Shown here in pieces: positions 1 to 18,063 of a DNA stretch of 64,000 nt. The DNA is taken from positions 37,059-101,058 of the forward strand of contig CAYLXA010000010.1 of the NCBI GenBank assembly GCA_964387845.1. Reading direction: 5' to 3'. The stretch is from an uncultured bacterium (lineage in GTDB: Bacteria > Omnitrophota > Omnitrophia > Omnitrophales > Abzuiibacteriaceae). How positions within the stretch are numbered: position 1 is the first letter of the stretch; each line of letters opens with the position of its first letter. The notes beneath the pieces are model-generated. The model did no database searches. It was not told the DNA's origin and saw nothing but the letters and a program-made list of their open reading frames with translations. The translations under genes were made by a program, and so were the position numbers.

Positions 1-3000
1 AATGATCCTGATTCGAGCGTAAATATCTCACATATTGAAATAATTTCGCATTACGTTCATAAACACCTTCTTTTAGTTTGTCAGTACGCAAATGACCGCT
101 GACAGGATCCAAGGCATAAACTTTAGAGGAGCCCAATCCTGTGAAAAATAAAACGCCTTGAGTGAAGGTGATAAGCGGCGTTGAAACTATTTCATCGGGA
201 AATACTTGCTTCAAATCGAGAACGCCTTTTTCAAATTTGGCATGATCTGGCTTTCCGTCACTCATCCGAAACGCGTGAATATAAGCCTGGCCTTTCCGGG
301 CTCTGTCATCAACCGGATGGACATCTGTCTTTCGATAATAAGCAGCATACAAAGTTTGTCCATCTTCGCTCACGGCCAACGAGTTAATCCGTGCTTCCGG
401 GTCAATCTTTTTAACCTCGTCCGACAAATTTAAACGTCCGTTCGACCACTTTTCAGACATTAATGCTTTGCGATCTAAATCAACTGCTAAAATGTCACCC
501 GTGAACGAAGTCAAAATGTAAGCCGCATTTCCTCTGGCCACCATTTCACGAGGCATGTCCTGAGACGAGATATGAAAGAATCTCTCATTATTTTGCCGCA
601 ACTCGGAGCGGGTTTCGGGCTTCGCTTCCATTAGTTTTTTAATTTGAGCGCGTGCTTCTGCAATCATTTGATCCGTAATTTCACCCTGCTCTTTGCCGAG
701 CGCCCCCAAGATTTTCGAATCTAAATTGCTTTTTTGGCTGAGTTCTAAACTGTCATAACCGATGTCTTTTTTCAATTGAACGATCTTTTTATAATTAGAA
801 AAGGTGCGAAGAAAATTAACAACCGGATCCAGCGAGACATGCTGCCCATCGTCAGTTGCATAAGATCCCAGCAAATCCAGAGTGGTTGTTGCAATCATCA
901 ATTCAATTGCCTGGTTAAATTGATCTTCGCCGCGGATGCCTGCCTGCTCAAATTCCTGCCTTAATTTCTCCAATTGTTGAGCACGATGAATCGAAAACGC
1001 AAAAATGTGATGTTTAATGATTAATTTCAAAAGCGCATTGCTTGAAACGTCCATTTCACCGAAGTGAATATGATTGTCACTTAACACGCGAAATGATTCG
1101 AGTTCATGGCCCGGAAATGAATGGTCTCCATTCTCTTTGAACTGCATTTTGGTTTTCTTGCCGATATCATGAAGCACGATAAATGCTTCCAATATCGCGC
1201 GGTCTTTTGCATTCCAATCCTTAATCAGATTGATCGCATCTTTGGGCGCTGTAGTGTTTCGGTCAATTTGATTGAGTGCCGAGAGAATGGCTTGTAAATG
1301 GTCCTGAAGTTTAGCATTCTGGCCGCCTTCCCTATGAAACAGGCTGTGATAATGAGGCGTTTCCAAAAAATCCGCATATTGATCCGGAATGCCAGATAAC
1401 TGTTTCACCAATTCATCCAATGCTGAAGCCGGCCCATACTGGCGCAGCTCGGAGCGCTGTTCTTTTATCCATTGCACCAAACGCCGATAGTCAGTAACGC
1501 GAAGCGACATGCGGGAATTTCCGGGATTCGGCGCTATGATAAACTGGTCGGCGGTTCCTCGAACCTTTTGGTACACAAAGACGAGAAACATACCGTAAAA
1601 CCCCTGTGATTCCGGAAGGCCCCGGGCAACCCAATCCGCTTCAAGAATTGACCTGAGGACATTTGCCTTGATGGTCAACTCGTCCGGTTCCTTGTTTGCA
1701 TCTAATTGTGCGATGACGGATTGAAAATATTGCAGAACTACCGCGTTTCTCCGTTGACTTTGAAGATCATTCCCCAATCCTTCAAAAAGTTTTTGCGTAA
1801 AGCGCTGCGCATTACCCATTTGATTTAAATCACGGACCAATGCCCGATATTCGCGCCGGTAAGCAAGCCATTCGTCTTCCAAATGCATATCAACGGAGCG
1901 CACAACCTTCTTAAATGCTTCCGGACTTGTTATCAATGGCTCCATGTCTGATTTGCCATGCAATTGCTTAACAAAATCAATCAGATATTTCATGCCCTCA
2001 TCTGCTTCTCTGGCCAATGCGGCATTGATCAAGTGCGTACCTTCATGGATCATGACATATTTAATAATCAGAGGTGGAAAATGAAGCGCGAAGTCACGAT
2101 TGATAGTCACATGAGTCACGCTTCCGTCTAATGAAGTTTTTATACGTGCATACGAATGCCTCTGCAAAGAGCTTAATAAAGTGTCATCGAGAACGGGATT
2201 TTTTTTAAATGCCTCGATAAATTTTAATGCTGTTTTTTGATCGTCTAGGTTTGAAATTTCGGAAGCAATTTTTTCAAGGCGGTCCACAACCGCTTGAATT
2301 TCAGGGAGAAATTCGGGAGTTCTGATCCACCGCAAGATAGGCCATGCAGCAAATAAAGCGGTTGTTCCTGCACCGATTATTATTTGCCTGCGGCTTGGCA
2401 GCCAAAATTTCTTAGCAGGCTCTTCGCTTTTTACTCCCTGACGCCGCTCCTTATTTTTTCGTCCGTTCTCACTTGCGCGCAGCTCGGCGCGGGAATTTCC
2501 GCTTGGAAGCTTGATGTTAAATTCTGCGGCTGCGTGGGCCAGCGCACGGTCGCGGTGCTCTCCATACATCAAAGCTTCCCGATGATTGTTTAGGCCTTTT
2601 TTCTTCCGAATTCGCTTTGCTTTATGCACAGAAGCCCTGGTTGAGTACTTCAAAGAAAGCGGCGCTGCCGGAAGCTGAATGCCGAACCGTTTCGCAGCAT
2701 TGTAAAGCGCCCTGTCCCGATGCTTGCCTCGGGTTAACTCGCGGGCATGACTTTTCCATTTCTTCTTCTCGCGTTTTTTTAACTCCCTGCGAACAGATCC
2801 TTCGGTTGGATACTCAAAGGGCACACCTCTTTTTCTTAATTCGGAACGATGATTAGAAACATGAACTTTTGAGCGAACGGGAAGCTGCTCTGATAAAACC
2901 GCTTCGAGCATTTGATCTTTAATCCACCAATGAATCGGGCCATTTTGTTTTGTCCAATCACGAATCGCATAACCCACTTCCTTTTGAGCTCGAATAAATA

Positions 3001-6000
3001 AACTTTCCATATTCCCATTACCATTTTGTGCCCGCGCGATCTGCTCGGCGAGACCTCGATAAATTCTGGCCGGCTCGAACTGATTGCGCCCATTAGAAGA
3101 TTGATTTTTCTGAAACGTCGAAACCGCTTCCTCAATGCCGATATGTGTCAACGCATTCTTGGCATTAAAAGATGCGGCGATTCGATCTATTTGCCTTTTC
3201 ATTTTTCTAAAATATTTCTTCCACGAAACAAAAGCCGGTTTTTCTCCGGCGCGCCGGATATCGAGCCCCAGCAAGATGCGATTTTGAATCAATTCTCCTT
3301 CTGGAATTTGATCTAAATAAAGGCCGTATCGCCCCTCAAAATTCTTTTCGTATTCAATTAATTCATCGCGCCAATCTTCAAGTTGTTTGGCATCAACGGC
3401 ACCGATTAAATTTAGTTCATAAATCAGATGAAGAGCGCGGCCTGCAAGGCCCAACCACCTGACGGCGTGAAGTAATTCGGAAGATTGGGTGTGTTTTTTC
3501 GCTTTATTGAGCGAGCTTCGGATCTGAATTTTCAGAATTCTGGATTTTCTTTGGCGCCTGTCAAATTCTTCAAACTCATCTTGGCTCATAGTTGGCTCAA
3601 TAATTAGTTTGGCATTTTTAAATAACTGCTTGAGCGCTCGATCTTGATGCAAACCCCTCTCATCCGTCCATTGTTGCCATGTCTGCTCGGAGGATTTTGT
3701 CGGTGAAAGCGGCTTTCTATCCCGTCCGGCTTTCGTTATTTTAAGGTTTCCGGTCTCAGCCCAATAACCCAGCCGTTTTGCTTCAAGTTGAATCAGATAT
3801 CGCTCGGTTCCCTCAAGCGGACCCGGAACAAATTTTTGAACACCAACTAAACCACGGTCCGTCAGATAAGCACTATAAACAAAATCAACCAAATGGCCTT
3901 TTCGATCGGTCTTTGGATTGGTGCTATACAAATCGATCCGCTTTGTAAAAGTCCGGCCATCTTGCTTTTCTTGAACATTGCGAAACACCATGAAAAATCT
4001 TCGCGGCTTTTCCGGAGTACCTACGCCCGCCCACTTAGGCCGGAGCGGTATGAAAAACCTTGTGTTTTTTGGCTTTAAAAATATTCCTGTTTGATGGCGG
4101 TTATGGTTGTGGCTATGCGTTATGGTTTTTGGCTCAATGGGAAGCGGTTCCTCTCCCGTCTTGATCCACTGTTGTATGCGTCTTTGAAATTCTTCTTCAT
4201 CTTTTAGAAATTGCTTGGTTTCCAAATCCACGTAAAACACGACCTGATGCTCCGGTTTATTCGAAACTTTTCCGCGTGCGATTCTCCTCACCCGCCAATA
4301 AACATTCTGCTTGAATGAGAAAACGGTAATTTCTAGGTCATCCCGATTTGAAAAATATTGTGAGGGCAGATAGAGCCGGCGCATGTTTTTTGCTTTTGGT
4401 AAGGGGAAAAACACGGTATTGGCATATTTGCCTTTTCGGACATGTTTTAAAACAGCCTCTTTCAAAATTCTAACGGCAGGAGGGCCGGATTCGCGTTGAA
4501 AAGTTAAATGAAAAAGTTCCTTGCGGACCTGTTCAAACTGATCAGGAAAAATAATTCCTTGCTTAGGTTGAAAACCGGTTAACGCATCAAATTCGAGCGT
4601 TCCCACTGCAGGCCTGAAAGGAAGTAAATGAACCTGCATTTGCGGACGGCGTTTGTCATCCGCGGAATCCCGGGTCCATATGACGCGCGGTTCTCCGGTC
4701 GGATATTGAAAAAGAGCCCACTTAACCGGCACTTTTGCTTCATGCAATTGGCCGTTTCGAAGATAAGAAAAGGATGTAATGAAAGGCGGTCGTCTTTTTT
4801 GTAGTCGCTGAAAAATACTATCCTGGTATGCATGAAGGCGCCGCGGGATCATAAAGCCGGAGGGTTGCGCCCGTTGGCCCATTAAAAAATCCCGTAAAAG
4901 CTGAGAACGCGAGCTATCGCGAACTTTGTTTGTGCGAAAATGGTCGGCCAATTCCATTTCCCGAATCAAAAACCGGTAACTCTCCTGAGGATCCACTTGA
5001 ATTCCCAAACCTGCTTCGCCTCCGGTTGTGTTACCAATTTTCTGAGTTTGTGATGAAACATAAGAAATAAAACGGCCTTCCCCTGCCGCGGCCAATAATT
5101 TCTGTTCATCCCAATTGACCATGAATAAGCGCGGATCATCCGTTTTGAGGAGCGCTGAATGGCTTTCCGGTGACAGAAGCCAAGCACGCTCCAAAAGATC
5201 TGCCCGATCTAATAGTGCCGCTGTTGAAATCCGGCCAAGGCGAATAAAATCTGAAACAGTTATCTGATGCGCAAATAACTGACTCTCACGATATTGGCGT
5301 TCTTCATTCGAAAGCGAAGCCAGATAAGGAAGCGCGTCTGTTTGAGAAAGATCTTCTTCCTTTGAAATACGGCGCGACGAAGATGGGCGTGGCTTCGGAA
5401 CGATTTGCATTGTTTCGCTATTTTGACGCAGCTCGGAGCGGGATTGAGACTGTTTTTGGCGAATTAATTTCACGGCTTCACGAACGCTAACACCCTTGCC
5501 TCGCATATCCATGTAATCAAATGCTAAATCTGCGTTTCCGTTGCTTAATTTCCAGGCAATAAACGCATTAATCACCGCATACGGATACATCCATCCTTGT
5601 CCTTTGTCTGTTAATGGATTCGGATCAAAGACACCGAAATTTTGCCGAGTCATTCCAATGGCATTTTCTTCTGCATATTCGTAAGCTTTATCGCCGGCTT
5701 CCCTGAGACTTCGGTCCAATTCTGCAGGCAATTGATCAACATACATCATCATTACTTCCCCGATACTGGTACCTTTATTGAAATTTCCTTTTACATATTT
5801 TTCAAAGAAAGATTGTTTTAATATATTGAGATCCCCTTTACTTTTTTGCAAGATTCTTAATGCGGCATAACCTTCGGCAAGTAACGCATCGTTATCAATA
5901 TATTTCAAACCAGATCTAAGTTTTTTTCCAAATTTATGCGTCAATTCGTGAGCAATTAGAAGACGGAGTCCCCACCCAGAGCCCATGCGTTTTAATTCGT

Positions 6001-9000
6001 TAGGATTAATTCGAATTCCATAATCAAATCCCGTGGCAAGCGTGTCGGGAAGCATTGCCACAGCAGTCGGTTTATTTTTAATCCAGATTGTTACGCCGAC
6101 AGCAGCCAGACCGATAGCAGCAAAACCAAATAAAAAATCACGACGTGTTAGTTTTTGTTTCGATTTAGTTTTATTTTTTCTTTCTAAGAAATATTTGAGG
6201 GAAAATATTGAGAAAATTCCGCTCAACAATGATAAGAAAATGGATAAGAATGTTAGGTATGCTTTTGGCTGCTCGATTGCAACCCCTATTGAGTCTGTTA
6301 AACGATTAATCAATTCTTCTTTTTGTTGCACAGATAAATCAACGGCGTAACGATTTATAAAAAACTCAACTTCTTCCCGTACAATTTTTCTCTGTTCTTG
6401 GTCTAATTGAAAAACAAACGGTTTGTTCGATTCGCGCAACTCGGAACGGGATTTTCTCAAATCTATGTCAAGTAAATGCTGCAAAGCTAATCTCACCTTC
6501 TCTTCTTCCATGCCATCCAACTCTTGAAGTTGCCGGTCTGTAAATGCTTGGATCAAGCGTGCCATGGCTATGGACCGTGTAGAAAATTGATGCAGGTAAT
6601 CATCAACGATCTGTTTTTGTTTTGCGCTTACTTGTTCCATCGAAATTTCGTTACGAGGAGGAAGGTTAAATGGATTTGGCGAACTATCATTTTGATTTAA
6701 ATCATCGTAAGCTTGCCACAGAGCTCCGTTCTTACCGTAAAAATATTTGCCCCACAATTGCATTCTGATATCTGAAACTTCCTTCCATTCTTTGTCGGCA
6801 TCATTGATATCGGTTTCAAAAACGTATGGCGCTTTTTCCTCATTAATTCCAATCGACGCCTCAAGCGGACCAAAAATAAGCGCCCCAGATTCAGAATCGA
6901 CAGTGTTAAGGCCTTCTTGAACATAGCCATGCAGGGTATGATTCATGAGCCAATTGAAATAATCATGCACAACTTGATTAAATCTCTTCGCACTCATTGA
7001 TCTTCCATTCCAATGCTCTGCGAGAAGCCTGTCAAAAGCGCTTTTCTCTCTCGACGCGCCATTTTCTATAGGTTCTGAACGCAGCTCGGCCCTTGAGCCG
7101 AGCGGGCTCAAGGACGGCTTCGGCATCGCAGCTCGTTGCGGCAAAGTCCGAGCCGCCCTTTGTTGCAGCAGTTCCGACTTCGAATCGGCTGGAGTCGAAG
7201 TACGGACAGTCCTCAACTCCGCTCGAGCTGAGGACTCAGCGTGGACGGGGTTTAAATTAGGTGCTTTTTTTACAATTTTATTATCGCTATTTTTTATATT
7301 GACAAAGCCCTGATTGTTTGATATAAAAAAAGTCCCTTCGCGCGCAAACTTTAGGAAAGAAGAGAAAATACGATGACCAAAATTCCAAAGCCCGGCTCCG
7401 AATATTCTGAAGAGCGTGAATTCCGCGTCATTTTGGAGCATCTTGAAAGCCAGTTCCGTACTTTTGGTGAGGGGATGAACCGGATGGAACAAAAACTTCA
7501 AAAACTGGACGGCATTGATCGCAGACTGACTAGCGTAGAAGAAGATGTTGGATTGATTAAGGTCAATCTTAAACAAATTAATATTGATCTTAGAGAAGTC
7601 AGAGGTGATATCATGGTTCTGAAAACTGACGTTAGAGTCTTGAAAAGCGCTTTCAAACCATTCACCGCCCAAGTTTCCGATCACGAGCACCGGATTTCCG
7701 CTCTTGAGCGTTCCCGTTAAACGCAATTCCGATCGACTTAAAGGTAGCTGCAATACCTTCGTGATATGATTTTCAACCCATGGCCATAATTCTTTTGTGA
7801 TAGATTTGAAATAATCGGAAGAAACTTGATACGGGCGCGCGCCAAACTGGATCTGATTGGCCAAATCAACCAAATCTATTAAGTGCCGCGCATCGGCTCC
7901 GATGAGATAGAAAAGAAATAAGTATTCCTGGGCAATTGTCAAACCACCTTTATTTTGCCGACTAATGACCAGGAATGCGTGATATCTCAAAGATTCTTCC
8001 AAGATCACCTCTGGATTCCCTTTTGAATCAAACAAGCGAGCTTGTTTGATCCTTTGATTGAACAATGCCGTGTTGCGCTTTTGCTTTAATGCGTTTTCTA
8101 TAAACAACGGGTGATACAAATCTTGATTGTATGCCCAGTGCAGAAAACGGAATTGGCTGAAACTCTCGTAAAATTCGGATGAAATATTTTCAGCAGCTAA
8201 TCTTGAGATATCGGATAAATGTTTAACTGCAAAATTGGGAATTCCTGATTTTTGAGGCCACCTTCTTTCTCCTAACGGAATTTTCTGAAATTCTTGCATA
8301 ACACCTTGTAATTCTGAAACATTTTTCGGCATCCAATTTTTTGATTTTGACAAATAATGAACCCCATAAGCTTCCCTGACAATGACAGATGCCAAGTTTT
8401 CAACAAAATAATCCTCGGCATATGGAAATTGGTTAATCAATTTCACGGAATCAAAAAAAGATTTCACGTTGATTTCTAAATCGATTTTTCCGTTCTCATC
8501 AATTGTTTTTTGAAAATGAATCCCCAAATTAGCTGCTTCCTGCGGCAGCAGTTTAGCCTGTTTGACTAATTCGGAGTAATTCTTAAGAATGTCAGTATTC
8601 GGATATCCTTTGGCAATTAACCAGTCGATTGTTTTTTGAATAGCGTTTTGAACACTTGCTAAATCGGCACGCGAAAGTTGAATCTCGTCCATCAGGGATT
8701 TATTTTGTTTAAAAGATTTTCGAACGGCGTAAATCGTACCTGCTATCAATGAACCGCTGACGGTTAAGCCTAGCCCATATTTAATAACGGTTCTTCGTGA
8801 TAAATCCGTTCCTCCTTTTGTCTCTTTTGTTTTATCTTTTTCTTTTGTTCTCAGCTCGGACTTCTTTTGAGTATTTCGTATCTCGTGAAACGTATCTCGG
8901 TGCAGCGGCTCAGCGTGGTTTGCTTCGGGATTCGTGACCCGCGTATCGTGTTTCGCAACCGATTCACGATTCACGAACGACGATTCACTGGATTGATTTT

Positions 9001-9178
9001 GCACCAAACTTCTCAACTCGGAAAGTGCGGCGGGAGAATTGGCGGTGAGGCGCGGGACGTTCAGCGACGGAACGGAGGAAGCATAGGAATTAGGAATGGA
9101 CGGAGATAGTCCGATGGTGTTCTGGATTGAAAAGCAGAAGATGATCAGAATCGCGGTAATTTTAAGGTATTGCTTCAA
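1..9178 (-). CDS. giant multidomain membrane-anchored protein, 3'-partial (>=3059 codons; stop codon beyond window start). N to C: signal-anchor TM, S/P-rich linker, TM, alpha-rich domain, linkers carrying R[SA]ELR motifs, TM pair plus HELTH zincin-like module, ~980-aa unknown region, basic repeat region, TM plus HEGTH zincin-like module, HD phosphohydrolase domain, beta-propeller-like repeats
   Basis: Hand translation of minus strand: no TTA/CTA/TCA in frame (plus triplets starting at positions = 2 mod 3) from 9196 down to 1; upstream in-frame stop at 9197-9199. TTG at 9178-9176 is preceded by AGGAAA (9190-9185, 6-nt spacer) and followed by K-rich then hydrophobic N-terminus (LKQYLKITAILIIFCFSIQNTIG). 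HELTH at 5936-5950, HEGTH at 2033-2047, HD motifs (LFHREGG, VLHDIGK at ~1166-1171, FPGHELES, IIKHHIF, TTTLDLLG) between ~1000 and 1400. Absent from the ORF track because no stop codon lies inside the window. Confidence 0.6.
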   Translation of the reverse strand, partial: MKQYLKITAILIIFCFSIQNTIGLSPSIPNSYASSVPSLNVPRLTANSPAALSELRSLVQNQSSESSFVNRESVAKHDTRVTNPEANHAEPLHRDTFHEIRNTQKKSELRTKEKDKTKETKGGTDLSRRTVIKYGLGLTVSGSLIAGTIYAVRKSFKQNKSLMDEIQLSRADLASVQNAIQKTIDWLIAKGYPNTDILKNYSELVKQAKLLPQEAANLGIHFQKTIDENGKIDLEINVKSFFDSVKLINQFPYAEDYFVENLASVIVREAYGVHYLSKSKNWMPKNVSELQGVMQEFQKIPLGERRWPQKSGIPNFAVKHLSDISRLAAENISSEFYESFSQFRFLHWAYNQDLYHPLFIENALKQKRNTALFNQRIKQARLFDSKGNPEVILEESLRYHAFLVISRQNKGGLTIAQEYLFLFYLIGADARHLIDLVDLANQIQFGARPYQVSSDYFKSITKELWPWVENHITKVLQLPLSRSELRLTGTLKSGNPVLVIGNLGGEWFESAFQDSNVSFQNHDITSDFSKININLFKIDLNQSNIFFYASQSAINAVQFLKFLFHPVHPLTKSTELAFKMLQNDAEFTLFRIFGAGLWNFGHRIFSSFLKFAREGTFFISNNQGFVNIKNSDNKIVKKAPNLNPVHAESSARAELRTVRTSTPADSKSELLQQRAARTLPQRAAMPKPSLSPLGSRAELRSEPIENGASREKSAFDRLLAEHWNGRSMSAKRFNQVVHDYFNWLMNHTLHGYVQEGLNTVDSESGALIFGPLEASIGINEEKAPYVFETDINDADKEWKEVSDIRMQLWGKYFYGKNGALWQAYDDLNQNDSSPNPFNLPPRNEISMEQVSAKQKQIVDDYLHQFSTRSIAMARLIQAFTDRQLQELDGMEEEKVRLALQHLLDIDLRKSRSELRESNKPFVFQLDQEQRKIVREEVEFFINRYAVDLSVQQKEELINRLTDSIGVAIEQPKAYLTFLSIFLSLLSGIFSIFSLKYFLERKNKTKSKQKLTRRDFLFGFAAIGLAAVGVTIWIKNKPTAVAMLPDTLATGFDYGIRINPNELKRMGSGWGLRLLIAHELTHKFGKKLRSGLKYIDNDALLAEGYAALRILQKSKGDLNILKQSFFEKYVKGNFNKGTSIGEVMMMYVDQLPAELDRSLREAGDKAYEYAEENAIGMTRQNFGVFDPNPLTDKGQGWMYPYAVINAFIAWKLSNGNADLAFDYMDMRGKGVSVREAVKLIRQKQSQSRSELRQNSETMQIVPKPRPSSSRRISKEEDLSQTDALPYLASLSNEERQYRESQLFAHQITVSDFIRLGRISTAALLDRADLLERAWLLSPESHSALLKTDDPRLFMVNWDEQKLLAAAGEGRFISYVSSQTQKIGNTTGGEAGLGIQVDPQESYRFLIREMELADHFRTNKVRDSSRSQLLRDFLMGQRAQPSGFMIPRRLHAYQDSIFQRLQKRRPPFITSFSYLRNGQLHEAKVPVKWALFQYPTGEPRVIWTRDSADDKRRPQMQVHLLPFRPAVGTLEFDALTGFQPKQGIIFPDQFEQVRKELFHLTFQRESGPPAVRILKEAVLKHVRKGKYANTVFFPLPKAKNMRRLYLPSQYFSNRDDLEITVFSFKQNVYWRVRRIARGKVSNKPEHQVVFYVDLETKQFLKDEEEFQRRIQQWIKTGEEPLPIEPKTITHSHNHNRHQTGIFLKPKNTRFFIPLRPKWAGVGTPEKPRRFFMVFRNVQEKQDGRTFTKRIDLYSTNPKTDRKGHLVDFVYSAYLTDRGLVGVQKFVPGPLEGTERYLIQLEAKRLGYWAETGNLKITKAGRDRKPLSPTKSSEQTWQQWTDERGLHQDRALKQLFKNAKLIIEPTMSQDEFEEFDRRQRKSRILKIQIRSSLNKAKKHTQSSELLHAVRWLGLAGRALHLIYELNLIGAVDAKQLEDWRDELIEYEKNFEGRYGLYLDQIPEGELIQNRILLGLDIRRAGEKPAFVSWKKYFRKMKRQIDRIAASFNAKNALTHIGIEEAVSTFQKNQSSNGRNQFEPARIYRGLAEQIARAQNGNGNMESLFIRAQKEVGYAIRDWTKQNGPIHWWIKDQMLEAVLSEQLPVRSKVHVSNHRSELRKRGVPFEYPTEGSVRRELKKREKKKWKSHARELTRGKHRDRALYNAAKRFGIQLPAAPLSLKYSTRASVHKAKRIRKKKGLNNHREALMYGEHRDRALAHAAAEFNIKLPSGNSRAELRASENGRKNKERRQGVKSEEPAKKFWLPSRRQIIIGAGTTALFAAWPILRWIRTPEFLPEIQAVVDRLEKIASEISNLDDQKTALKFIEAFKKNPVLDDTLLSSLQRHSYARIKTSLDGSVTHVTINRDFALHFPPLIIKYVMIHEGTHLINAALAREADEGMKYLIDFVKQLHGKSDMEPLITSPEAFKKVVRSVDMHLEDEWLAYRREYRALVRDLNQMGNAQRFTQKLFEGLGNDLQSQRRNAVVLQYFQSVIAQLDANKEPDELTIKANVLRSILEADWVARGLPESQGFYGMFLVFVYQKVRGTADQFIIAPNPGNSRMSLRVTDYRRLVQWIKEQRSELRQYGPASALDELVKQLSGIPDQYADFLETPHYHSLFHREGGQNAKLQDHLQAILSALNQIDRNTTAPKDAINLIKDWNAKDRAILEAFIVLHDIGKKTKMQFKENGDHSFPGHELESFRVLSDNHIHFGEMDVSSNALLKLIIKHHIFAFSIHRAQQLEKLRQEFEQAGIRGEDQFNQAIELMIATTTLDLLGSYATDDGQHVSLDPVVNFLRTFSNYKKIVQLKKDIGYDSLELSQKSNLDSKILGALGKEQGEITDQMIAEARAQIKKLMEAKPETRSELRQNNERFFHISSQDMPREMVARGNAAYILTSFTGDILAVDLDRKALMSEKWSNGRLNLSDEVKKIDPEARINSLAVSEDGQTLYAAYYRKTDVHPVDDRARKGQAYIHAFRMSDGKPDHAKFEKGVLDLKQVFPDEIVSTPLITFTQGVLFFTGLGSSKVYALDPVSGHLRTDKLKEGVYERNAKLFQYVRYLRSNQDH
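7079..7250 (-). other. GC-rich hairpin-dense segment inside the giant ORF, encoding a disordered linker with three R[AS]EL[RL]-type motif copies
   Basis: Mutually exclusive stems gctcggc(ccttga)gccgagc and ccttgagcc(gagcg)ggctcaagg at 7083-7111; further stems acttcga/tcgaagt (~7174-7198) and agtcctca/tgaggact (~7208-7237). Confidence 0.4.
7299..7327 (+). promoter_or_regulatory. sigma70-type promoter: -35 TTGACA (7299-7304), 17-nt spacer, extended -10 TGaTATAAA (7319-7327), with an AT-rich UP-like tract at 7262-7298
   Basis: Exact hexamer matches and spacing read directly from the sequence; lies inside the giant minus-strand ORF and points at the 7373 ATG. Confidence 0.55.
7373..7720 (+). CDS. 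small coiled-coil protein (115 aa) encoded antisense to, and codon-aligned with, the giant minus-strand ORF; could be an overlapping antisense gene or a shadow ORF
   Basis: ORF track entry (MTKIPKPGSEYSEEREFRVILEHLESQF...). RBS AGGAAAGAAGAG at 7353-7364, 8 nt before the ATG. Near-consensus sigma70 promoter 46 nt upstream. Leu and Ser codons avoid TTA/CTA/TCA, so the opposite-strand frame stays open. Confidence 0.45.
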   Translation: MTKIPKPGSEYSEEREFRVILEHLESQFRTFGEGMNRMEQKLQKLDGIDRRLTSVEEDVGLIKVNLKQINIDLREVRGDIMVLKTDVRVLKSAFKPFTAQVSDHEHRISALERSR

Positions 9179-9188
9179 GCGAAGTTTC

Positions 9189-9207
9189 CTACTTTCTTAA
9201 GAAGTAG
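9189..9207 (-). promoter_or_regulatory. 5'UTR stem-loop (CTACTT-TCTTAAG-AAGTAG) overlapping the RBS of the giant ORF
   Basis: Inverted repeat ctactt / aagtag around a palindromic CTTAAG core; no U-run follows on the minus transcript, so it is unlikely to be a terminator. Confidence 0.35.
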
Positions 9208-9210
9208 TAA

Positions 9211-9239
9211 AGTGTACCTTAAAATACCGGATATTTCAA
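9211..9239 (-). promoter_or_regulatory. candidate promoter of the giant gene (minus strand): -35 TTGAAA (9239-9234), 17-nt spacer, -10 TACACT (9216-9211)
   Basis: Read from the reverse complement of 9211-9239; lies between the upstream pilin-like gene stop (9276) and the 5'UTR hairpin/RBS of the giant ORF. Confidence 0.3.
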
Positions 9240-9275
9240 ATTTACGACCTAATAATTAAAAGTAACAGATAAAGT

Positions 9276-9551
9276 TTATCTGAAATCTTTATACTTATCA
9301 TTCAGCGTTTTTTGGATATCTTTTACCTGCGCTTTTGCCTGCTCGCCCAACCCAATTTGGGTCTGAGTATAACCGCCGGTTAATTGATCAAACAGGCCTT
9401 GTGAGGCGGCCTGCTTTCCCTGCTTCGGATGTTTTTGTTCCTTCTTCCCGATCCACTGGTCTAAGTAGCCCATTTTCCCCGCGATTAAGAACATAATGAT
9501 AATCAGCGCAATTAAAAGATTGATTAAATTGAACCCTTTTTCGTTTTTCAT
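9276..9551 (-). CDS. small prepilin-like N-terminal domain protein (91 aa; G-FNLIN motif, no Glu5)
   Basis: Internal ATG of track ORF 9276..9740 preceded by AAAAGGAGACATC; N-terminus MKNEKGFNLINLLIALIIIMFLIAG resembles a class III signal peptide/pilin helix; the upstream Cys/Arg-rich extension is rejected. Confidence 0.5.
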   Translation of the reverse strand: MKNEKGFNLINLLIALIIIMFLIAGKMGYLDQWIGKKEQKHPKQGKQAASQGLFDQLTGGYTQTQIGLGEQAKAQVKDIQKTLNDKYKDFR

Positions 9552-9562
9552 GATGTCTCCTT

Positions 9563-10723
9563 TTAAGAAATCATTCTCAAAATTTGGGCACATAAAAGCC
9601 CGGCGTAAGTTCCGGCGATATTTCCCAAAATGCCGAGCAAGAGGCCAACAGGTGCAAGCTGCGGATGATAAACCGCCGCCACAATCGGCGCCGACACCGG
9701 CCCGCCGATATTCGCCTGGCTTGCGGCAGCGGCAAGGCACATCGGCGATCTTGTGATCCGGGATGCGGCAACTAAAAATGCCGCATGAATCAAAACAATG
9801 AGAAATCCCGCCGCAATCAATATCGGCACTCCGCCGATTTCATTCAAATTTGCTTTTGCGCCGATCGATGCCAAGACAAGATAAAGCAGCCCATAGCCGA
9901 TTTTTGAGGCGCCGTAAGATTCTAATTTCCTCACACGCGTAAACGAACCCAAAATGCCAATCGCGGTCGCGATTAAGATGGCCCAGGTCGTCACAGAAAA
10001 TCCGGCGGTTACCGGAACCAACCGGGCCAAATAAATTGAGATGATGAGGCCGATAAATGCGGTGCACAAAATTAATCCTGTTTTTTGCGCAGACAAGCGT
10101 ACCCCCGCCCCTTTCGGAACCGTCCCTTTAGCTCCGAGCGAAACAACCATTCTCTGATTTGATTGATTCCATTGGTCGTAGCGGTGCTGAAATGTTTGGA
10201 GCGCAATCAAAATAGCCATCCACGAATAAGCAACGACGATATCGACAATCACCATCGGCAGAAAAATAGGATCCGGAACCTGAATTGCTTCTTTGACGGC
10301 AATCATGTTGGCGCTTCCGCCGGTCCAGGACCCGGAAAGCGCCGCAAAACCCATCCACGCATCAGTGCCGAGCCATGGCTTAAAAATCGTCACGACAATG
10401 AGCGTTCCGGCAAAAATTCCGGCACTTCCTGCGAACATCATGAAAAGCGCATACGGGCCTAATTTTAAAATGGCGGGAATATCAACACCAAGCAGAAGCA
10501 AAATCAAACTTGCCGGCAAAAGATAAGTTGAAATAGCCGAATAAACAACGCTTTCCGACGGAATAATTCCCGCAGCGCTGAAAATCATCGGCAAAAAATA
10601 AATCCAGAAAACGGCGGGGAGAAAGCGGAAATATTTTGAAAATTTTGGCTGAGACGACATTCGAAGAACTGATAACTCGATCGTGATTAAGGCAATCACA
10701 ACGAGAATAGGATTTTGCATCAC
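9563..10723 (-). CDS. DUF819-like polytopic membrane protein
   Basis: 386-aa ORF, highly hydrophobic with ~10 predicted TM helices; family assignment is from memory of similar sequences. Confidence 0.55.
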   Translation of the reverse strand: MMQNPILVVIALITIELSVLRMSSQPKFSKYFRFLPAVFWIYFLPMIFSAAGIIPSESVVYSAISTYLLPASLILLLLGVDIPAILKLGPYALFMMFAGSAGIFAGTLIVVTIFKPWLGTDAWMGFAALSGSWTGGSANMIAVKEAIQVPDPIFLPMVIVDIVVAYSWMAILIALQTFQHRYDQWNQSNQRMVVSLGAKGTVPKGAGVRLSAQKTGLILCTAFIGLIISIYLARLVPVTAGFSVTTWAILIATAIGILGSFTRVRKLESYGASKIGYGLLYLVLASIGAKANLNEIGGVPILIAAGFLIVLIHAAFLVAASRITRSPMCLAAAASQANIGGPVSAPIVAAVYHPQLAPVGLLLGILGNIAGTYAGLLCAQILRMIS

Positions 10724-11859
10724 GATGAGATTGTGTGCCTAACGGGTTCGGTCCCGATTCCTGATTTAATTTTTTCTAAATCATACGTTCCGTCTTTACC
10801 CGCAAAATTTTTTGTCATGATTTTGTCTTTGATGAAAAACGGCGCATCCAGGTCCACAAAATCAAACCCGCCGAATCCGGCGGCAAAATGTGCCGCCGCG
10901 GTGGTCGCAAGCTCCGATTCCATCATTTGGCCGATCATGAGTTTTAAATTCGATTGCTTGGCCAGCCGAGCGGCCTCCAAGGCCTCCAGAAGGCCGAATT
11001 TCATGAATTTAATGTTAATCGCATTTGCCGCACGTTTTTTAATCAGTTTTTTGACATCCGCAAGCGTGGAAACGGTCTCATCCGCAACAACCGTTAACTT
11101 GCCTTCGCGCGTTACCTTGGCAAGGCCTTCCCAATCATTCTTCGCAACCGGCTGTTCGATTAAAACAGGTTCGATTTTAAATTTCCGGAGCGTTTTTAAG
11201 AAACGGATCGTTTCTTCGGCTGTCAATTTTGCGTTTGCATCCAAATAAATCACCGAATTTTTGATCACTTTCTTAATCCGTAAGGTTCTTTCAAGATCAA
11301 GCTCTTCCCCGGCCCCGATTTTGATTTTAAAAGTGCGAATCCCGCGTTTTAAAATATTTTTAGCCGATTTTTCGGCATCTTCCGCACTGCCGAGCACAAT
11401 CGTCATCGCGGTCTTCAACTCTTTTGGTTTTGATCCGAAAAATTTCCAGAACGGGATTTTCTGGCTGCGCGTCAATGCATCCAAAAGCGCCATTTCAAGC
11501 GCCGCCAGTGCAGCTTTGTTTTTGGCTAATTTTTCACGGGATGAATTTGAAATATCCACACAGGTAGAAAAATCTCTCCCCGCAAGTTCTTGCGCAATTT
11601 GATTCAAATGGCCCAATGTTTCTTCGACGGTTTCGCCGGTAATGTGCACTGCAACACCCGCTTCGCCATAGCCCGAAATTCCGTTGTCTAATTCAACGGA
11701 AAATAAAACATTGTCGAGGATATCGTGCTGGCCGAACGCAGTCCGGAAGGGCTGTGTGAGTTTAGCTTGAAGCGAAATTGCGGCAGCACTGACGATCGTG
11801 GCCCTCATTTTTATTGATCGATCTGAATAATTACTCATGGGAATGAGGGCGGAGCTCAT
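10720..11859 (-). CDS. enolase-superfamily enzyme (dipeptide epimerase / muconate cycloisomerase-like)
   Basis: KxK catalytic motif in RTFKIKIGAGEELDLERTLRIKKV; length typical of the MR/MLE fold. Confidence 0.7.
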   Translation of the reverse strand: MSSALIPMSNYSDRSIKMRATIVSAAAISLQAKLTQPFRTAFGQHDILDNVLFSVELDNGISGYGEAGVAVHITGETVEETLGHLNQIAQELAGRDFSTCVDISNSSREKLAKNKAALAALEMALLDALTRSQKIPFWKFFGSKPKELKTAMTIVLGSAEDAEKSAKNILKRGIRTFKIKIGAGEELDLERTLRIKKVIKNSVIYLDANAKLTAEETIRFLKTLRKFKIEPVLIEQPVAKNDWEGLAKVTREGKLTVVADETVSTLADVKKLIKKRAANAINIKFMKFGLLEALEAARLAKQSNLKLMIGQMMESELATTAAAHFAAGFGGFDFVDLDAPFFIKDKIMTKNFAGKDGTYDLEKIKSGIGTEPVRHTISS

Positions 11860-11904
11860 TCTTTATAAAACAATTTGCTCCTCCAATGAAAATGAGACTC
11901 CGCA

Positions 11905-12474
11905 TCAAATATCCTTCGACGCGGTATAAATAATGCAGGTGATGACAACCAGCGCCGAAAGAACAAGGCGAGCGACAACATGCTGATTAAACGCATACCC
12001 ATGATGATCAAATTCCAATTGAACGGACTTTCCGTCAAACTGGATGGTCTCCGGTTTTTCCGATTCCATTTCAACTTCAATGCCGCCGGCCAAAACACCG
12101 TAATAAGTTTTGCCGATTCCGGTTCCTACAATTACCGCGATTAAAATAGCACCAAAGACCCAGGCATTAAGCACTTGCTTGCGCCGAACCTGGCGGGCTT
12201 GTTCTTCCAAAATCGCTTTGTCGGCCAGCGCGCGCGATGCAGCGGCGGTTTTGATGGCTTTTTCGCGGAACCAATTGACGTCTTCCAGCGTTTTGGCTTC
12301 GTCAACAAACTTAATAAATTCTTCAAGCCGCTCCCTCTTCACTTCGTCCGTTTCAGTTTCGACAAACCGGTGGAATGCGGCTTTGGCTTCGGGAAGCGCG
12401 ATTTCCTCTTGGGATTGGAACTCTTTTTTCCGGTCTCGGGCAAGCTTCTCTATATCAGAATCTTCGGGGTCCAT
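11905..12474 (-). CDS. hypothetical protein with N-terminal coiled coil and TM segments
   Basis: 189-aa ORF; charged N-terminal half followed by hydrophobic helices. Confidence 0.45.
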   Translation of the reverse strand: MDPEDSDIEKLARDRKKEFQSQEEIALPEAKAAFHRFVETETDEVKRERLEEFIKFVDEAKTLEDVNWFREKAIKTAAASRALADKAILEEQARQVRRKQVLNAWVFGAILIAVIVGTGIGKTYYGVLAGGIEVEMESEKPETIQFDGKSVQLEFDHHGYAFNQHVVARLVLSALVVITCIIYTASKDI

Positions 12475-12488
12475 ACACTACTTATCGG

Positions 12489-13184
12489 CTAGTGCGCTAC
12501 TTTTTTCCAATCATCCAAAATTCGGCATTGGTGGCCGAATTTAATGATACGCGTCGCGATTTTCTCGATAAAGACAGGCTCGTGCGTCACAATCAGCATC
12601 GTGAGGCCGTCTTTGGCAAGGTCCGACATCACTTTGACGATTTCTTCCTTCATTTCGGGATCAAGACTGGAGGTCGGCTCATCAAACAGGACCGCTTTCG
12701 GATGCATGGCAAGCGCTCTTGCGATTCCGACGCGCTGCTGCTGGCCGCCTGAAAGTGATTGTGGATGTGCGGCTGCTTTTTGCTCCAAGCCGACGTGTTT
12801 AAGTAATTTCAGTGCATTTTCGCGGGCTTGCTCCGGATGTTCTTTCAATACTTGGATTGGACCGATCGTGAGATTTTCAAGCACTGTGAGATGCGGAAAC
12901 AAATTAAAAAACTGAAACACAAATCCCAACCGCTCGCGGACCGATTTTATTTTTAGTTTTTCTTTGCGGACATCCATATCGGCATAAAGCTCGACATCGC
13001 CTACGCTCACCGTGCCCTGCTGAAATGGTTCTAAATATGTGAGGCAGCGCAGAAAAGTGCTTTTCCCGACACCGGACGGGCCTTTGAAAACGATGACGTC
13101 ACCTTCATCCACCGTCAAATTTAAATCTTTGACGACCTCGTGATTCCCGTAAAATTTGGAGAGATTCTTAACTTCGATGCGCAT
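12489..13184 (-). CDS. polar amino-acid ABC transporter ATP-binding protein
   Basis: Walker A GPSGVGKST, ABC signature LSGGQQQR, Walker B VLFDEPTS. Confidence 0.85.
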   Translation of the reverse strand: MRIEVKNLSKFYGNHEVVKDLNLTVDEGDVIVFKGPSGVGKSTFLRCLTYLEPFQQGTVSVGDVELYADMDVRKEKLKIKSVRERLGFVFQFFNLFPHLTVLENLTIGPIQVLKEHPEQARENALKLLKHVGLEQKAAAHPQSLSGGQQQRVGIARALAMHPKAVLFDEPTSSLDPEMKEEIVKVMSDLAKDGLTMLIVTHEPVFIEKIATRIIKFGHQCRILDDWKKVAH

Positions 13185-14634
13185 TCTGCCTCCTCTCCAA
13201 CGAACGAGACCAAAGTGACAGCGGAAAACTCATCAGAAAATATAAAAGCGCGGTCAGCAATCCAAGTTCCAGAAAGCGGTAAGTGGTTGTCGCGGCCTGT
13301 GAATATGCGCGCGTGAGTTCCGTTACAGTGATGATCGAAACAAGCGATGTGTCTTTGAAAAGCGCGATAAAATCATTGGTGCTGGGCGGCAGCGAAATCC
13401 GGAATGCCTGCGGGACAATAATAAAGCGCAAACTTTGCCGGGTATTCATACCGAGCGATCTTGCGGCCTCATCCTGGCCCTTAGGAACGGATAAAAGCCC
13501 CGCACGATAGATTTCAGCCTCGTAAGCCGCATAATTAAGCCCCAGGCCCAGCAGGGCTGCCACAAAGGCATTCAGCTGAATCCCCAAATTCGGGAGCCCA
13601 TAATAGAGCAAATAAAGCTGAATCAAAAGTGGCGTTCCGCGAATTACCTCTATATAGGCATTACAAAAATAACGGACTGGTTTTACGCCGTACACTTTTC
13701 CGATACAAAGCAAAAATCCCACAAAAACCGCGAGCGCCATCGAAAACACCGACAAAACAACGGTCACCGCAGCGCCTTTTAAAATGAGCGGGATGAATCG
13801 CGAAATGGAATGAGTTTCGCTCAGACGTTTTGAATCGGGCACAGTGCTTTGTTTTAATTTCTCCTGATTCGCCGTCCACATGTTCCATTTCTTGTAAATG
13901 GCTTCGAGCTCTCCGGATTCGATTAAGCTATGCAAAGCTTCATTCATTTTTTCTCTCAAAATCGGAGAATCTTTTCGGATACCGCCCGCGTAAATTCCTT
14001 CGCTTATCGGTTCGCCGACATTTTGGAGAGCAGGATTTGGCGTTACATAAAACGCTGCAATCGGCACATCCATCAAAACCGCATCAATGCGGCCGATTTC
14101 GAGATCTTTGTACGCTTCCACAGGCGACGGATACGGAACGACCGTGATTTTTCTTTCTTCTTCCAAAATATTTTGCGCGAGTGATGCAGAAAGTGTTCCG
14201 GCTTTTTTCCCGTGAAGCGCCTCAAGCGTATTTAAATCGGAATTTTCTTTGCGGGTTGAGATTTGTTCGGAGAAATAATAATAAGGAATGGTGAAATCGA
14301 CGGATTCTTGGCGGTCTTTCGTGATTTCTAAGCCGTTAAAGGCAATGTCGAAATCGTTCCTGAGGAGCGCAGGCACCAATTGATCCCACGGAAGCTTGAC
14401 CAGTTTGGACTGAACACTCAACTTCTGCGCAACCGCCTCCATGATCTCAACTTCGAAGCCGATGATTTTTTCCGGATTTTTGACGTCCGGAAAAACAAAT
14501 GGCGCGCCGCCTGCATCATCCGCGCCCCAGCGAAGTTCGCCGGTTCGTTCGACGCGGTCCCAGGCCTCATCTGCCCGGAGAGACGGGATCTGCAAAAAAA
14601 AGAGGAGAAAAACCGGCCAAATCCATTTTTTCAT
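13168..14634 (-). CDS. fused periplasmic substrate-binding domain and permease of an amino-acid ABC transporter
   Basis: N-terminal family-3 SBP-like region with signal peptide; C-terminal permease with EAA-like loop (ARSLGMNTRQSLRFIIVPQAF); overlaps the ATPase gene. Confidence 0.75.
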   Translation of the reverse strand: MKKWIWPVFLLFFLQIPSLRADEAWDRVERTGELRWGADDAGGAPFVFPDVKNPEKIIGFEVEIMEAVAQKLSVQSKLVKLPWDQLVPALLRNDFDIAFNGLEITKDRQESVDFTIPYYYFSEQISTRKENSDLNTLEALHGKKAGTLSASLAQNILEEERKITVVPYPSPVEAYKDLEIGRIDAVLMDVPIAAFYVTPNPALQNVGEPISEGIYAGGIRKDSPILREKMNEALHSLIESGELEAIYKKWNMWTANQEKLKQSTVPDSKRLSETHSISRFIPLILKGAAVTVVLSVFSMALAVFVGFLLCIGKVYGVKPVRYFCNAYIEVIRGTPLLIQLYLLYYGLPNLGIQLNAFVAALLGLGLNYAAYEAEIYRAGLLSVPKGQDEAARSLGMNTRQSLRFIIVPQAFRISLPPSTNDFIALFKDTSLVSIITVTELTRAYSQAATTTYRFLELGLLTALLYFLMSFPLSLWSRSLERRQNAHRS

Positions 14635-14643
14635 GGGGGAATG

Positions 14644-15378
14644 TTAATATTTTACGGTCAGTAAAGTCAAGCCATGCGCAGGCGCTGTCGGGCCGATGTG
14701 GCGGCGGTCTTTAGCTTTCAAAATTTCTTCAAACTGTTTCACGCTCAATTTTCCGGTTCCGACCATGATGAGTGTACCGACAAAATTCCGGACCATATTG
14801 TATAGAAAGCCGTTTCCTTCCACGAGAAAACGGATCTCATAATCATGTTGAATGATGCTGAATTGCTTAATCGTGCGGACAGAATCGCGGCCGTCAGCTT
14901 TTGCCTGAAACGACCTGAAATCGTGTTTTCCGACAATTAATTTTGCGGCTTTTTTCATGGCCGTCACATCCAAAGGATGCGGAAAATGATAGTGTGTCAG
15001 GCGTTTTAAAGCAGAGCGGCTGGAGCGGTTCCAAATCAAATACTGATAAACTTTCGTTTTGGCTGAGAAGCGCGCCGAAAAACCGGCCGGCATTTCCTGG
15101 ACAAACTCAGCCGATAAATCCGGCGGCAAATACGTGTTGAGTGCGCGGTGAATATTGTAGACAGGAATTTCTGAATTGGTTTTAAAATTAACGACTTGGC
15201 CTTTGGCGTGAACGCCGGCATCCGTGCGTCCGCTGGCAGCCGAAATTTTCAGGGATTTCTTGAAAATTTGCTTCAAAGCTTTTTCGAGTTCGGATTGAAC
15301 CGTGCGCCGCCCGGGCTGTTTCTGAAAACCCGAAAATTTGGCGCCATCATACTCGAGGATAAGCTTGATGTTTCGCAT
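14644..15378 (-). CDS. truA: tRNA pseudouridine(38-40) synthase
   Basis: MRNIKLILEYDGAKFSGFQKQPG... matches the TruA N-terminal motif and length. Confidence 0.85.
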   Translation of the reverse strand: MRNIKLILEYDGAKFSGFQKQPGRRTVQSELEKALKQIFKKSLKISAASGRTDAGVHAKGQVVNFKTNSEIPVYNIHRALNTYLPPDLSAEFVQEMPAGFSARFSAKTKVYQYLIWNRSSRSALKRLTHYHFPHPLDVTAMKKAAKLIVGKHDFRSFQAKADGRDSVRTIKQFSIIQHDYEIRFLVEGNGFLYNMVRNFVGTLIMVGTGKLSVKQFEEILKAKDRRHIGPTAPAHGLTLLTVKY

Positions 15379-15430
15379 TTTTTGTGACTCGTGGTTCGCG
15401 AATCGTGAATCGATGCACGAATCACTAAGT

Positions 15431-16552: not shown

Positions 16553-16609
16553 GCTACAAGCTGTACAATCTTCAAAAACTTGAAGCCTGAAGCTTGTAGC
16601 CTGTGGCGA
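16553..16609. repeat. intergenic imperfect palindrome (REP-like) between leuB stop and asd start, sharing a core with the 48075-48150 element
   Basis: caagctacaagctgcatgctacaagctg ... cttcaaaaacttgaag ... cagcttgtagcc inverted arms. Confidence 0.5.
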
Positions 16610-17683: not shown

Positions 17684-17694
17684 AGGGGTAAGGA

Positions 17695-18063
17695 TTAAGG
17701 GGTAAGGGATAAGCTTTTGCGAAGTCCGGAAAGCATTCTTCCGATTTCGTTACAGTAGTTAATAAGCATTTCATAATGTTCATGATCAACATAATTTAAA
17801 TCCCTGCTTAAAAGTAATAAATATTTGGTTTCTTCAAGTGAAGAATTCGACAAATTCAGAAAATGCAAATAATCTTTTGTACTTTTTCGTTTTTGTCCTT
17901 CTACAATGTTTGTGGCAATCGAAACTGTGCTTCTTCGTATTTGAGAAATAATTCCAAATTTTTCATCATTTGGAAAACGTTTCGTTAACTTATAAATTTC
18001 TAAAATTAAAGTGTGAGATTTTTGCCAAACTTTTAAATCTTGAAATGTTTCTATCCTATACAT
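17695..18063 (-). CDS. four-helix-bundle protein (TIGR02436-like)
   Basis: 122 aa; [30 protein letters not shown] typical of this family. Confidence 0.7.

Follow-up and report, generated by a model that had tools for sequence, protein, structure and literature searches.

Does a bacterial giant gene yield one huge protein or many smaller ones? The question is an open one, and it is raised here by a 64,000-nucleotide stretch of DNA from an uncultured bacterium (contig CAYLXA010000010.1 of assembly GCA_964387845.1, positions 37,059 to 101,058; the whole stretch is called the window below), which opens inside a very long minus-strand reading frame. We find that this frame belongs to a real bacterial chromosomal gene for a protein of 4,114 amino acids (aa), P0001, of which the window holds about three quarters. 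The protein is a string of protein-sized orphan modules between conserved ends, parted by a recurrent junction peptide, [R/K]-[S/A]-E-L-R; relatives at the same locus carry lineage-specific sets of cassettes, and parts of the gene have been exchanged recently. The initial annotation, made from the DNA letters and a list of open reading frames (ORFs), had recognized the giant frame but overlooked the five-residue peptide that organizes it. If the chain is cut, the family supplies concrete candidate cutting points.

A gene of 4,114 codons

The annotation had claimed a stop-free minus frame, with plus-strand codons at positions equal to 2 modulo 3, that was absent from the ORF track. This claim holds: from 9196 to 2 there is no stop, the first one lying at 9197-9199, and 3,065 codons are open in the window, while the remaining two minus frames have 190 and 234 stops within the first 12 kb. 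The TTG proposed as the start, at 9178, is the sole ATG, GTG or TTG among the first 60 codons of the frame; the AGGAAA ribosome-binding site proposed along with it is found 7-8 nt 5' of the TTG, and database gene callers chose the same start. A promoter had been suggested as well, and the site does exist, running from 9239 to 9211 (TTGAAA-17-TACACT, 9/12), but such sites occur at chance frequency (2 found against 1.2 expected).

The database product P0001 (4,114 aa) is 100% identical to the translation across the window's 3,059 residues, and the independent Logan assembly L001 (run SRR15237813) matches window 1-19178 with 0 mismatches in 19,178 nt. Below position 1, the gene in L001 goes on for 3,167 nt (1,055 codons and a stop) and ends at a TAA, with a leuC-like (aconitase-family) gene beginning 50 nt further on. 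The P0001 record and the identical L001 assembly therefore establish that the ORF is real, as had been claimed, and longer than the window; the ORF track missed it only because the frame runs off the window edge.

Could the frame nevertheless be an artefact, either several genes that errors of assembly or sequencing have run together or a pseudogene in decay? The window is derived from a metagenome and most of the modules are orphans, as might be expected in that case. The second assembly, however, is identical over the 19,178 nt, and 3,065 stop-free codons are impossible by chance in DNA of 44% G+C. Open frames of 2,294 and 3,275 codons with the same architecture lie at the same locus in two other lineages, which come from other samples, and distant members keep such an architecture as well. 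As three lineages keep the architecture in independent assemblies, the scenario entertained in the annotation, in which separate genes were joined through a lost stop, is excluded, and we find an artefact of any kind scarcely credible.

A peptide at every junction

The annotation's description of a mosaic outside any known family agrees with our searches of Pfam, NCBIfam, PHROGs, PADLOC and PDB sequences, which give almost nothing. The order in the protein comes from [R/K][S/A]ELR, which stands at every module boundary as a recurrent junction peptide between protein-like units. Full-length P0001 consists of a leader, about 17 mutually unrelated protein-sized modules and a conserved C-terminal module. 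The part in the window reads, from the start of the gene, as follows.

9179..9199, minus: translation start region, with an in-frame TAA (9197-9199, six codons upstream), the AGGAAA ribosome-binding site, then the TTG at 9178
2..9178, minus: part of the giant gene in the window, the first 3,059 codons of the 4,114-codon gene (P0001)
9011..9178, minus: leader, aa 1-56, a Sec-type hydrophobic N-terminus and short peptide ending LSELR, 98% identical to the P0003 leader
9011..9025, minus: motif copy 1, L-SELR, aa 52-56
8849..8863, minus: motif copy 2, K-SELR, aa 106-110
7721..8848, minus: module aa 111-486, starting with RR and a hydrophobic anchor and ending in motif copy 3, RSELR (7721-7735)
7211..7720, minus: module aa 487-656, its C-terminal half like a recurrent serine/threonine-rich (S/T-rich) module, ending in motif copy 4, RAELR (7211-7225)
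7079..7210, minus: short spacer module aa 657-700, with a decayed copy KSELL inside, ending in motif copy 5, RAELR (7079-7093)
6434..7078, minus: module aa 701-915, no family match, ending in motif copy 6, RSELR (6434-6448)
5426..6433, minus: module aa 916-1251, with a transmembrane helix, a Tat-like signal (6080-6154) and HELTH (5936-5950), ending in motif copy 7, RSELR (5426-5440)
2834..5425, minus: largest module, aa 1252-2115 (864 aa), no detectable family, ending in motif copy 8, RSELR (2834-2848)
2477..2833, minus: basic module aa 2116-2234, with a duplicated HRDRAL...LP segment, ending in motif copy 9, RAELR (2477-2491)
1442..2476, minus: module aa 2235-2579, with RR and a hydrophobic anchor 28 aa past the previous motif and HEGTH (2033-2047), ending in motif copy 10, RSELR (1442-1456)
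596..1441, minus: putative HD-type phosphohydrolase/nuclease-like module aa 2580-2861, HD match at 893-1327, ending in motif copy 11, RSELR (596-610)
2..595, minus: first part of a beta-rich module (aa 2862-3222 of full-length P0001) truncated at position 1, in which the annotation saw candidate beta-propeller-like repeats

The internal duplication in the basic module (aa 2116-2234, window 2477-2833, minus strand) consists of the segments GKHRDRALYNAAKRFGIQLP and GEHRDRALAHAAAEFNIKLP.

The window ORF thus contains R[SA]ELR nine times and two xSELR copies near its N-terminus, 11 in all, and in the other frames of the 64-kb window [R/K][S/A]ELR has zero occurrences. Full-length P0001 has 17 [SA]ELR copies where 0.28 are expected from composition. 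Its relatives P0002 and P0003, described below, have 11 and 14 where about 0.2 are expected, and the 11 family proteins that we examined have 96 in 22,462 residues against 1.8 expected. An unbiased count of words in the window ORF gives SELR (8) and RSELR (6) as the commonest four- and five-residue words, and both exceed everything seen in 1,000 shuffles, where the maxima were 5 for four-residue and 3 for five-residue words. The search pattern left the residue before the [SA]ELR core free; 86 of 94 non-identical sites have R or K there, and positions further from the motif carry almost no information. After the motif the residue is mostly small or polar, and Pro is never found at +1 or +2 in the 94 sites; the flanking stretches, of 15 residues on each side, are more polar (p = 3e-7) and less hydrophobic (p = 6e-10) than positions drawn at random from these proteins. 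The segment borders that the annotation had suggested, at 7740, 5440 and 2490, coincide with the motif copies at 7721-7735, 5426-5440 and 2477-2491. Our literature searches found no mention of the motif and nothing of relevance under the sample accessions.

Relatives at a shared locus and the exchange of cassettes

Among 5.8 billion clustered proteins, the only close relatives of P0001 are P0002 (3,275 aa, from a JGI metagenome) and P0003 (2,294 aa, from another SRA run). All three genes occupy the same slot, in a row made up of truA, an ABC transporter, a 189-aa ORF, an MR/MLE enolase, a DUF819 gene, a small prepilin-like ORF, the giant gene and leuC. None of 27 distant Omnitrophota-type loci with the MR/MLE-DUF819 pair has a motif-bearing giant gene, so that the synteny is confined to the close lineage.

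The three proteins have in common a C-terminal module of about 210 aa that ends ...LRSELRxAWAQLTAA, and the 56-aa leader is common to P0001 and P0003 (98% identity), but the cassettes between these conserved ends mostly differ. Where a cassette is shared, its limits are those of the motif: P0001 111-486 matches P0002 563-938 with 83% identity over 376/376 residues, exactly from motif to motif, and P0001 3456-3588 matches P0003 1002-1157 with 92% over 132 residues, again from motif to motif. These exact cassette borders between relatives validate the candidate junctions independently.

An exhaustive HMMER search with the C-terminal module against 1.84 billion representative proteins found nine proteins in all, every one of them with the motif. 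In all seven that exceed 1,000 aa the module is at the extreme C-terminus, and the other two are short (203 and 261 aa) and come from contigs of <1.4 kb. In the six distant matches unrelated segments alternate with 3-15 motif copies, and the C-terminus reads ...R[SA]ELR-x7-A/S-A; three of the proteins (P0006, P0007 and P0008) have a signal-peptide-like start and a first motif at about residue 55-95. Two more motif-bearing giant genes adjoin family members, one of 4,159 aa at locus L002 and one of >2,000 aa at L005. At the latter (17930-27929), P0008 is followed by tRNA-His, a large serine recombinase and a Replic_Relax gene before the second motif-bearing giant, and this region may be an integrative element carrying such genes. 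Other searches added little: with the C-terminal module, a scan of a genome collection found no relatives and a metagenome scan nothing beyond the already known JGI contig; a viral-contig scan for relatives of the giant gene found nothing; tblastn with 3,000 aa as the query matched no plasmid or phage; and the alignment of nine C-terminal sequences recovered two short fragments only.

The shared parts of the giant genes resemble each other more closely at the DNA level than their chromosomal surroundings do. Between L001 and L003, the fraction of identical codons at conserved residues is 0.52-0.62 in the flanking housekeeping genes and 0.83-0.97 in the leader, the shared cassette and the C-terminal core; between L001 and L002 it is 0.75 in the shared cassette against 0.50-0.58 in the flanks. 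This difference argues that parts of the giant genes have been exchanged between lineages more recently than the flanking chromosome diverged. Even without any cutting of the protein, it is unusual for cassettes to be exchanged in frame at a housekeeping locus.

The S/T-rich module at P0001 3456-3588, beyond the window, and its counterpart at aa 1002-1134 of the L003 gene are 95% identical in DNA, with 97% identical codons at conserved residues, but only 92% identical in protein, so most of the differences are non-synonymous, which suggests either diversifying selection or relaxed constraint. The second giant of L002 and window 7211-7720 contain weaker copies of the module.

Peptide or DNA

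If cassettes are exchanged at the motif, is it the peptide or the DNA that is being kept? Motif sites use all the codon families of Arg, Leu and Ser, orthologous sites show synonymous differences only (AGA<->CGG, CGA<->AGA), and out of frame the degenerate motif-coding pattern matches the DNA at chance level. Taken together, these three observations argue that it is the peptide on which selection acts at these sites.

There is also a favoured, GC-rich coding form of the motif, CGC-(T/G)CC-GAG-CTG-CGC (e.g. window 1442-1456, 2477-2491, 5426-5440 and 7079-7093), and the 10-mer CCGAGCTGCG has four occurrences in the window, each at a motif. The codons concerned compare as follows with gene-wide and housekeeping usage.

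GAG (Glu): 69% at the motif, 29-31% gene-wide/housekeeping
CTG (Leu): 53% at the motif, 15% gene-wide/housekeeping
TCC (Ser): 59% at the motif, 16-17% gene-wide/housekeeping

Housekeeping codon usage fails to account for this preference, which suggests that the junction sequences have shared ancestry or were copied in the course of cassette exchange; the GC-rich form may reflect such copying or an additional role at the nucleic-acid level.

One might go further and regard the motif as mainly a joint in the DNA, a GC-rich microhomology (CGC-KCC-GAG-CTG-CGC) for in-frame insertion and exchange of cassettes, with the peptide as a passenger. The codon choice so far from gene-wide and housekeeping usage, the cassette borders exactly at motifs and the codon identities that point to recent exchange (0.83-0.97 in shared parts, 0.52-0.62 in flanking genes) would all be in keeping with this idea. 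Many copies, however, including those at orthologous sites, have drifted synonymously while the peptide stays exact, and the upstream R/K is kept despite unrelated codons (AAG, CGN, AGR). Moreover, all copies lie in one frame, and that of giant genes only, and neither an inverted repeat nor a recombinase is associated with the window's locus. We therefore consider it improbable that the motif is mainly a DNA joint, although such a joint is compatible, as a second role, with a polyprotein cut at the peptide.

What the modules contain

The family proteins examined comprise 78 modules of at least 40 aa, with a median of 231 aa, nearly all unrelated to one another. The few of recognizable family are enzymes or regulators with a single domain, which takes up the module: a class I methyltransferase and an HD/Cas3-HD-like domain in P0001; a NUDIX domain, P-loop kinase-like segments and a methyltransferase in P0003; HPr, the RNA polymerase alpha C-terminal domain, RidA and more methyltransferases in the distant members; and a PPDK-like and a receiver-like module in the second giant of L002. 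The fit to the junctions is close, as RidA starts 8 aa past a motif and the RNA polymerase alpha domain stops about 9 aa short of one. P0002 has eight tandem repeats of about 94 aa without any motif between them, and the motif therefore parts protein-like units rather than every domain.

Two of the functional assignments in the initial annotation are best taken as tentative. The HD domain that it called canonical does have LHDIGK and the flanking His and Asp residues, but the Pfam HD model gives 19.1 bits, below the cut-off of 22; the Cas3-HD models of PADLOC match this module with E=4e-6, and NCBIfam cas3_HD scores 18 against a cut-off of 43. The HELTH (5936-5950) and HEGTH (2033-2047) motifs of the zincin-like modules are present where they had been placed, but the assignment draws on the HExxH signature and has no family match behind it, since neither module finds a peptidase family in Pfam, NCBIfam or PHROGs. 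HExxH is present in 5 of the 11 family proteins examined and absent from six.

The five transmembrane helices listed in the annotation correspond to three strong hydrophobic segments (aa 7-25, 975-993 and 1015-1033) and two weaker ones with RR just before each (aa ~128-158 and ~2263-2285). Tat-type (twin-arginine) signals, with the consensus S/T-R-R-x-F-L-K and a hydrophobic (h-) region, are normally functional only at a free N-terminus. The Tat-like signal at aa 1009-1033 (window 6080-6154), with LTRRDFLFGF followed by an h-region (Pfam TAT_signal 18.4 bits, cut-off 22.7), is internal unless the chain is cut. Of 7 signals made up of RR and a hydrophobic stretch, 5 lie within 45 aa after a motif, where 17% are expected (P = 0.002); one pair among them is orthologous. 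In P0008 a canonical Tat signal, TRREFLK, begins 2 residues after RAELR.

Is the chain cut at its junctions?

We regard it as roughly a toss-up whether the gene encodes a chromosomal polyprotein that is cut at [R/K][S/A]ELR by a trans-acting protease, cleavage being what we infer from the proteins' sequences. We are drawn to this reading because there is one site per junction, a site that closes the leader and a site that precedes a nine-residue tail, and because the motif has sharp boundaries, the residues after the presumed cut (P1') are small, Pro is absent and export signals of N-terminal type follow the motifs. A sequence-specific endopeptidase would then recognize the motif in trans and probably cut after the final Arg, and the precursor would be converted into separate proteins. 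Released modules with twin-arginine or transmembrane signals of their own would use those signals, and others, such as the methyltransferase and the HD hydrolase, would act as soluble enzymes. Cassettes, leader and C-terminal module are traded between lineages, and one locus thus has a different protein set in each lineage. The broader picture, in which an Omnitrophota-like lineage encodes sets of everyday proteins in the form of chromosomal polyproteins ('operons at the protein level'), with one universal cleavage peptide, a dedicated protease and in-frame cassette swaps, is offered more tentatively, as somewhat short of probable.

Several observations weigh against cleavage. The C-terminal module, in which P, F, G, D, G and the terminal R-x-E-L-R...A are invariant (this invariant last motif copy standing 9 residues before the C-terminus), has no conserved Ser/His/Cys set, and its predicted fold is a generic Rossmann-like one. 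A universal protease-like module was not found in the family either, HExxH being confined to the five proteins mentioned, so that a processing enzyme, if there is one, would act in trans; among the window genes scanned against Pfam a dedicated protease was not evident, with several smaller ORFs not scanned. Motif copies inside the folded C-terminal domain stand at non-homologous positions in different members and lie in predicted helices (predicted local distance difference test, pLDDT, 65-88), which is unusual for protease sites. A Sec-type leader at the N-terminus of the whole chain is ill-suited to cytoplasmic processing. Free-standing homologues of the orphan modules were not found, the search with module 3 being uninformative as it failed to recover the query proteins themselves. 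Finally, the bias of the motif to one GC-rich DNA form suggests that junction copying or recombination has shaped it too.

Some of these points would be met by an intact, giant, membrane-associated multi-domain protein in which the motif is an uncut helical linker or a docking element for a chaperone, for a secretion or insertion machine, or for the protein's own C-terminal domain. The sequence RSELR favours helices, consistent with those predicted in the C-terminal module, and several hydrophobic segments could thread a single polypeptide through the membrane; no protease was found, either in the C-terminal module or as a universal module, and Omnitrophota giant proteins are typically membrane-associated. 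A docking element, however, would be needless at every boundary between unrelated units, and yet it is missing between tandem repeats; nor would one be needed for closing the leader and preceding the nine-residue tail in every member. Tat-type signals right after motifs also make little sense in an uncut chain. On balance we think the intact protein, the strongest of the rival readings, unlikely, though well worth keeping in mind.

A further possibility is that the modules, which look like independent proteins, are made separately by internal initiation or some other translational event at the junctions, and that the long chain is never made. There are zero stop codons between the modules, and the motif is unlike the sequences known to cause skipping of a peptide bond. 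The 12 residues that follow motifs show no enrichment of Met (0.013 against 0.016), which makes internal initiation unlikely, and we rejected it on this ground. Separate synthesis seems to us very improbable, and even jointly with the artefact considered above it deserves very little weight.

In all nine family proteins the tail past the last motif (AAWAQLTAA, SQWMQTIAA, KTWATAVAA, TRWRQAIAA and so on) has non-polar residues and then Ala-Ala or Ser-Ala. Such tails resemble degrons of the ssrA type or of tail-specific proteases. The window and four related loci yielded no transfer-messenger RNA (tmRNA) whose ssrA tag could be set beside them.

Comparison with known systems

The architecture is that of a modular polyprotein or multi-module giant protein, a kind already known, with an unusually explicit junction code. 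Viral polyproteins, processed by 3C- or NIa-type proteases, have a short uniform recognition peptide at each junction of unrelated mature proteins, and some spacer peptides. The present family likewise has one short peptide per junction and short spacers between some sites, but its gene is cellular and chromosomal, an embedded protease was not detected and cassette content varies between close relatives. The gingipain/HagA polyproteins of Porphyromonas gingivalis are precursors cut after Arg or Lys into several domains; they contain the protease itself, related adhesin repeats and a type IX secretion system C-terminal domain, in contrast to the array of unrelated enzymes in the giant gene.

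The MARTX toxins of Vibrio and relatives, of 3,500-5,200 aa, have conserved N- and C-terminal regions around an array of unrelated modules whose make-up varies by strain through gene exchange, and release takes place by proteolysis in inter-module linkers (PMC5218395, PMC5555677, PMC2900308). P0001-P0003 resemble them in having a variable cassette array and a shared C-terminal module, with the leader common to P0001 and P0003. Unlike MARTX, which is defined by glycine-rich RTX-type repeat regions at both ends and an embedded cysteine protease domain activated by inositol hexakisphosphate, P0001 has no RTX or haemolysin-type repeat family (Pfam, window part and full length) and no cysteine protease domain, neither Peptidase_C80 nor another protease family being matched. 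Type I secretion is replaced by a Sec-type leader, and type I secretion system genes were not found nearby. The delimiter here is a strict five-residue peptide rather than a Leu in loose context, the cargo consists of typical prokaryotic cytoplasmic enzymes and regulators, and processing is a proposal only.

Phages and conjugative elements have polyvalent proteins, single chains that unite 2-15 or more enzymatic domains of unrelated kinds (methylases, nucleases, peptidases) and for which processing into units has been proposed (Iyer et al. 2017, PMC5512222). Their genes lie on mobile elements, and they depend on an embedded zincin-like MPTase (PMC5512222). The unrelated enzymatic modules in one chain, and the HExxH modules of some members, are points of likeness. 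The window gene, however, sits among housekeeping genes (truA, ABC transporter, MR/MLE enolase, DUF819, leuC), and relatives are absent from the phage, plasmid and viral collections searched, the only PHROG match being a methyltransferase. A repeated delimiter motif like [R/K][S/A]ELR has not been described for polyvalent proteins.

The giant proteins of Omnitrophota ('Archaeovorin' and the dockerin type) reach 10,000-100,000 aa and contain C39 or S8 peptidase, SecA-like and carbohydrate-binding regions (bioRxiv 10.1101/2023.11.21.568195, 10.64898/2026.06.07.730766). Their cleavage into several products has been put forward as an open question, with the cleavage points stated as unknown, and the missing cleavage points blocked a module-wise analysis (bioRxiv 10.1101/2023.11.21.568195, 10.64898/2026.06.07.730766). 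Our family is likely to come from the same phylum and is likewise very long, largely unannotatable and membrane-associated, but P0001 has only 4,114 aa, lacks their domains (Pfam) and has an explicit junction motif. If the motif is indeed a cleavage code, it would be the first one defined for bacterial giant genes and a direct route to splitting other giants into functional parts, and it would represent a new mode of gene organization and exchange in bacteria. It would also point to a sequence-specific protease, potentially a useful tool, and open about 80 orphan modules to study as separate proteins.

Host and genomic surroundings

The neighbourhood in the window is that of an ordinary chromosome, with truA, asd, leuB, glgA, pfk, cox genes and a two-partner secretion cluster. 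The DUF819 and MR/MLE neighbours have their best matches, at 50-56% identity, in metagenome-assembled genomes of Candidatus Omnitrophota, where the same gene pair is adjacent. We tentatively affiliate the host with Omnitrophota, and the lineage is divergent from every GTDB species representative.

Each of the three syntenic loci keeps the small prepilin-like ORF just upstream of its giant gene (L002 9472-9723; L003 6763-7014), and the ORF is absent upstream of the distant member P0008.

9276..9551, minus: small prepilin-like ORF, 91 aa (83-91 aa across loci; MKNxxGF..LI.LLIA...), directly upstream of the giant gene

The two-partner secretion cluster occupies window 29911-42368 on the minus strand, and its large proteins show no enrichment of the motif.

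29911-35169, minus: TpsA-like protein with a TPS domain, 1,752 aa
35433-37136, minus: 567-aa protein with a Dictyostelium-type repeat
37407-40367, minus: TpsA-like protein with a TPS domain, 986 aa
40641-42368, minus: ShlB/FhaC-type transporter

Between leuB and a ThiG-like gene, a 122-aa gene (window 17695-18063, minus) has matches to 23S_rRNA_IVP and to bAvd four-helix bundles, and no reverse transcriptase was seen near it. A respiratory cluster at window 52993-59677 (minus) encodes subunit I of cytochrome oxidase, a subunit II that carries a fused carboxypeptidase-regulatory-like domain, and a multi-haem cytochrome c of 935 aa, which implies aerobic respiration in this Omnitrophota-like lineage.

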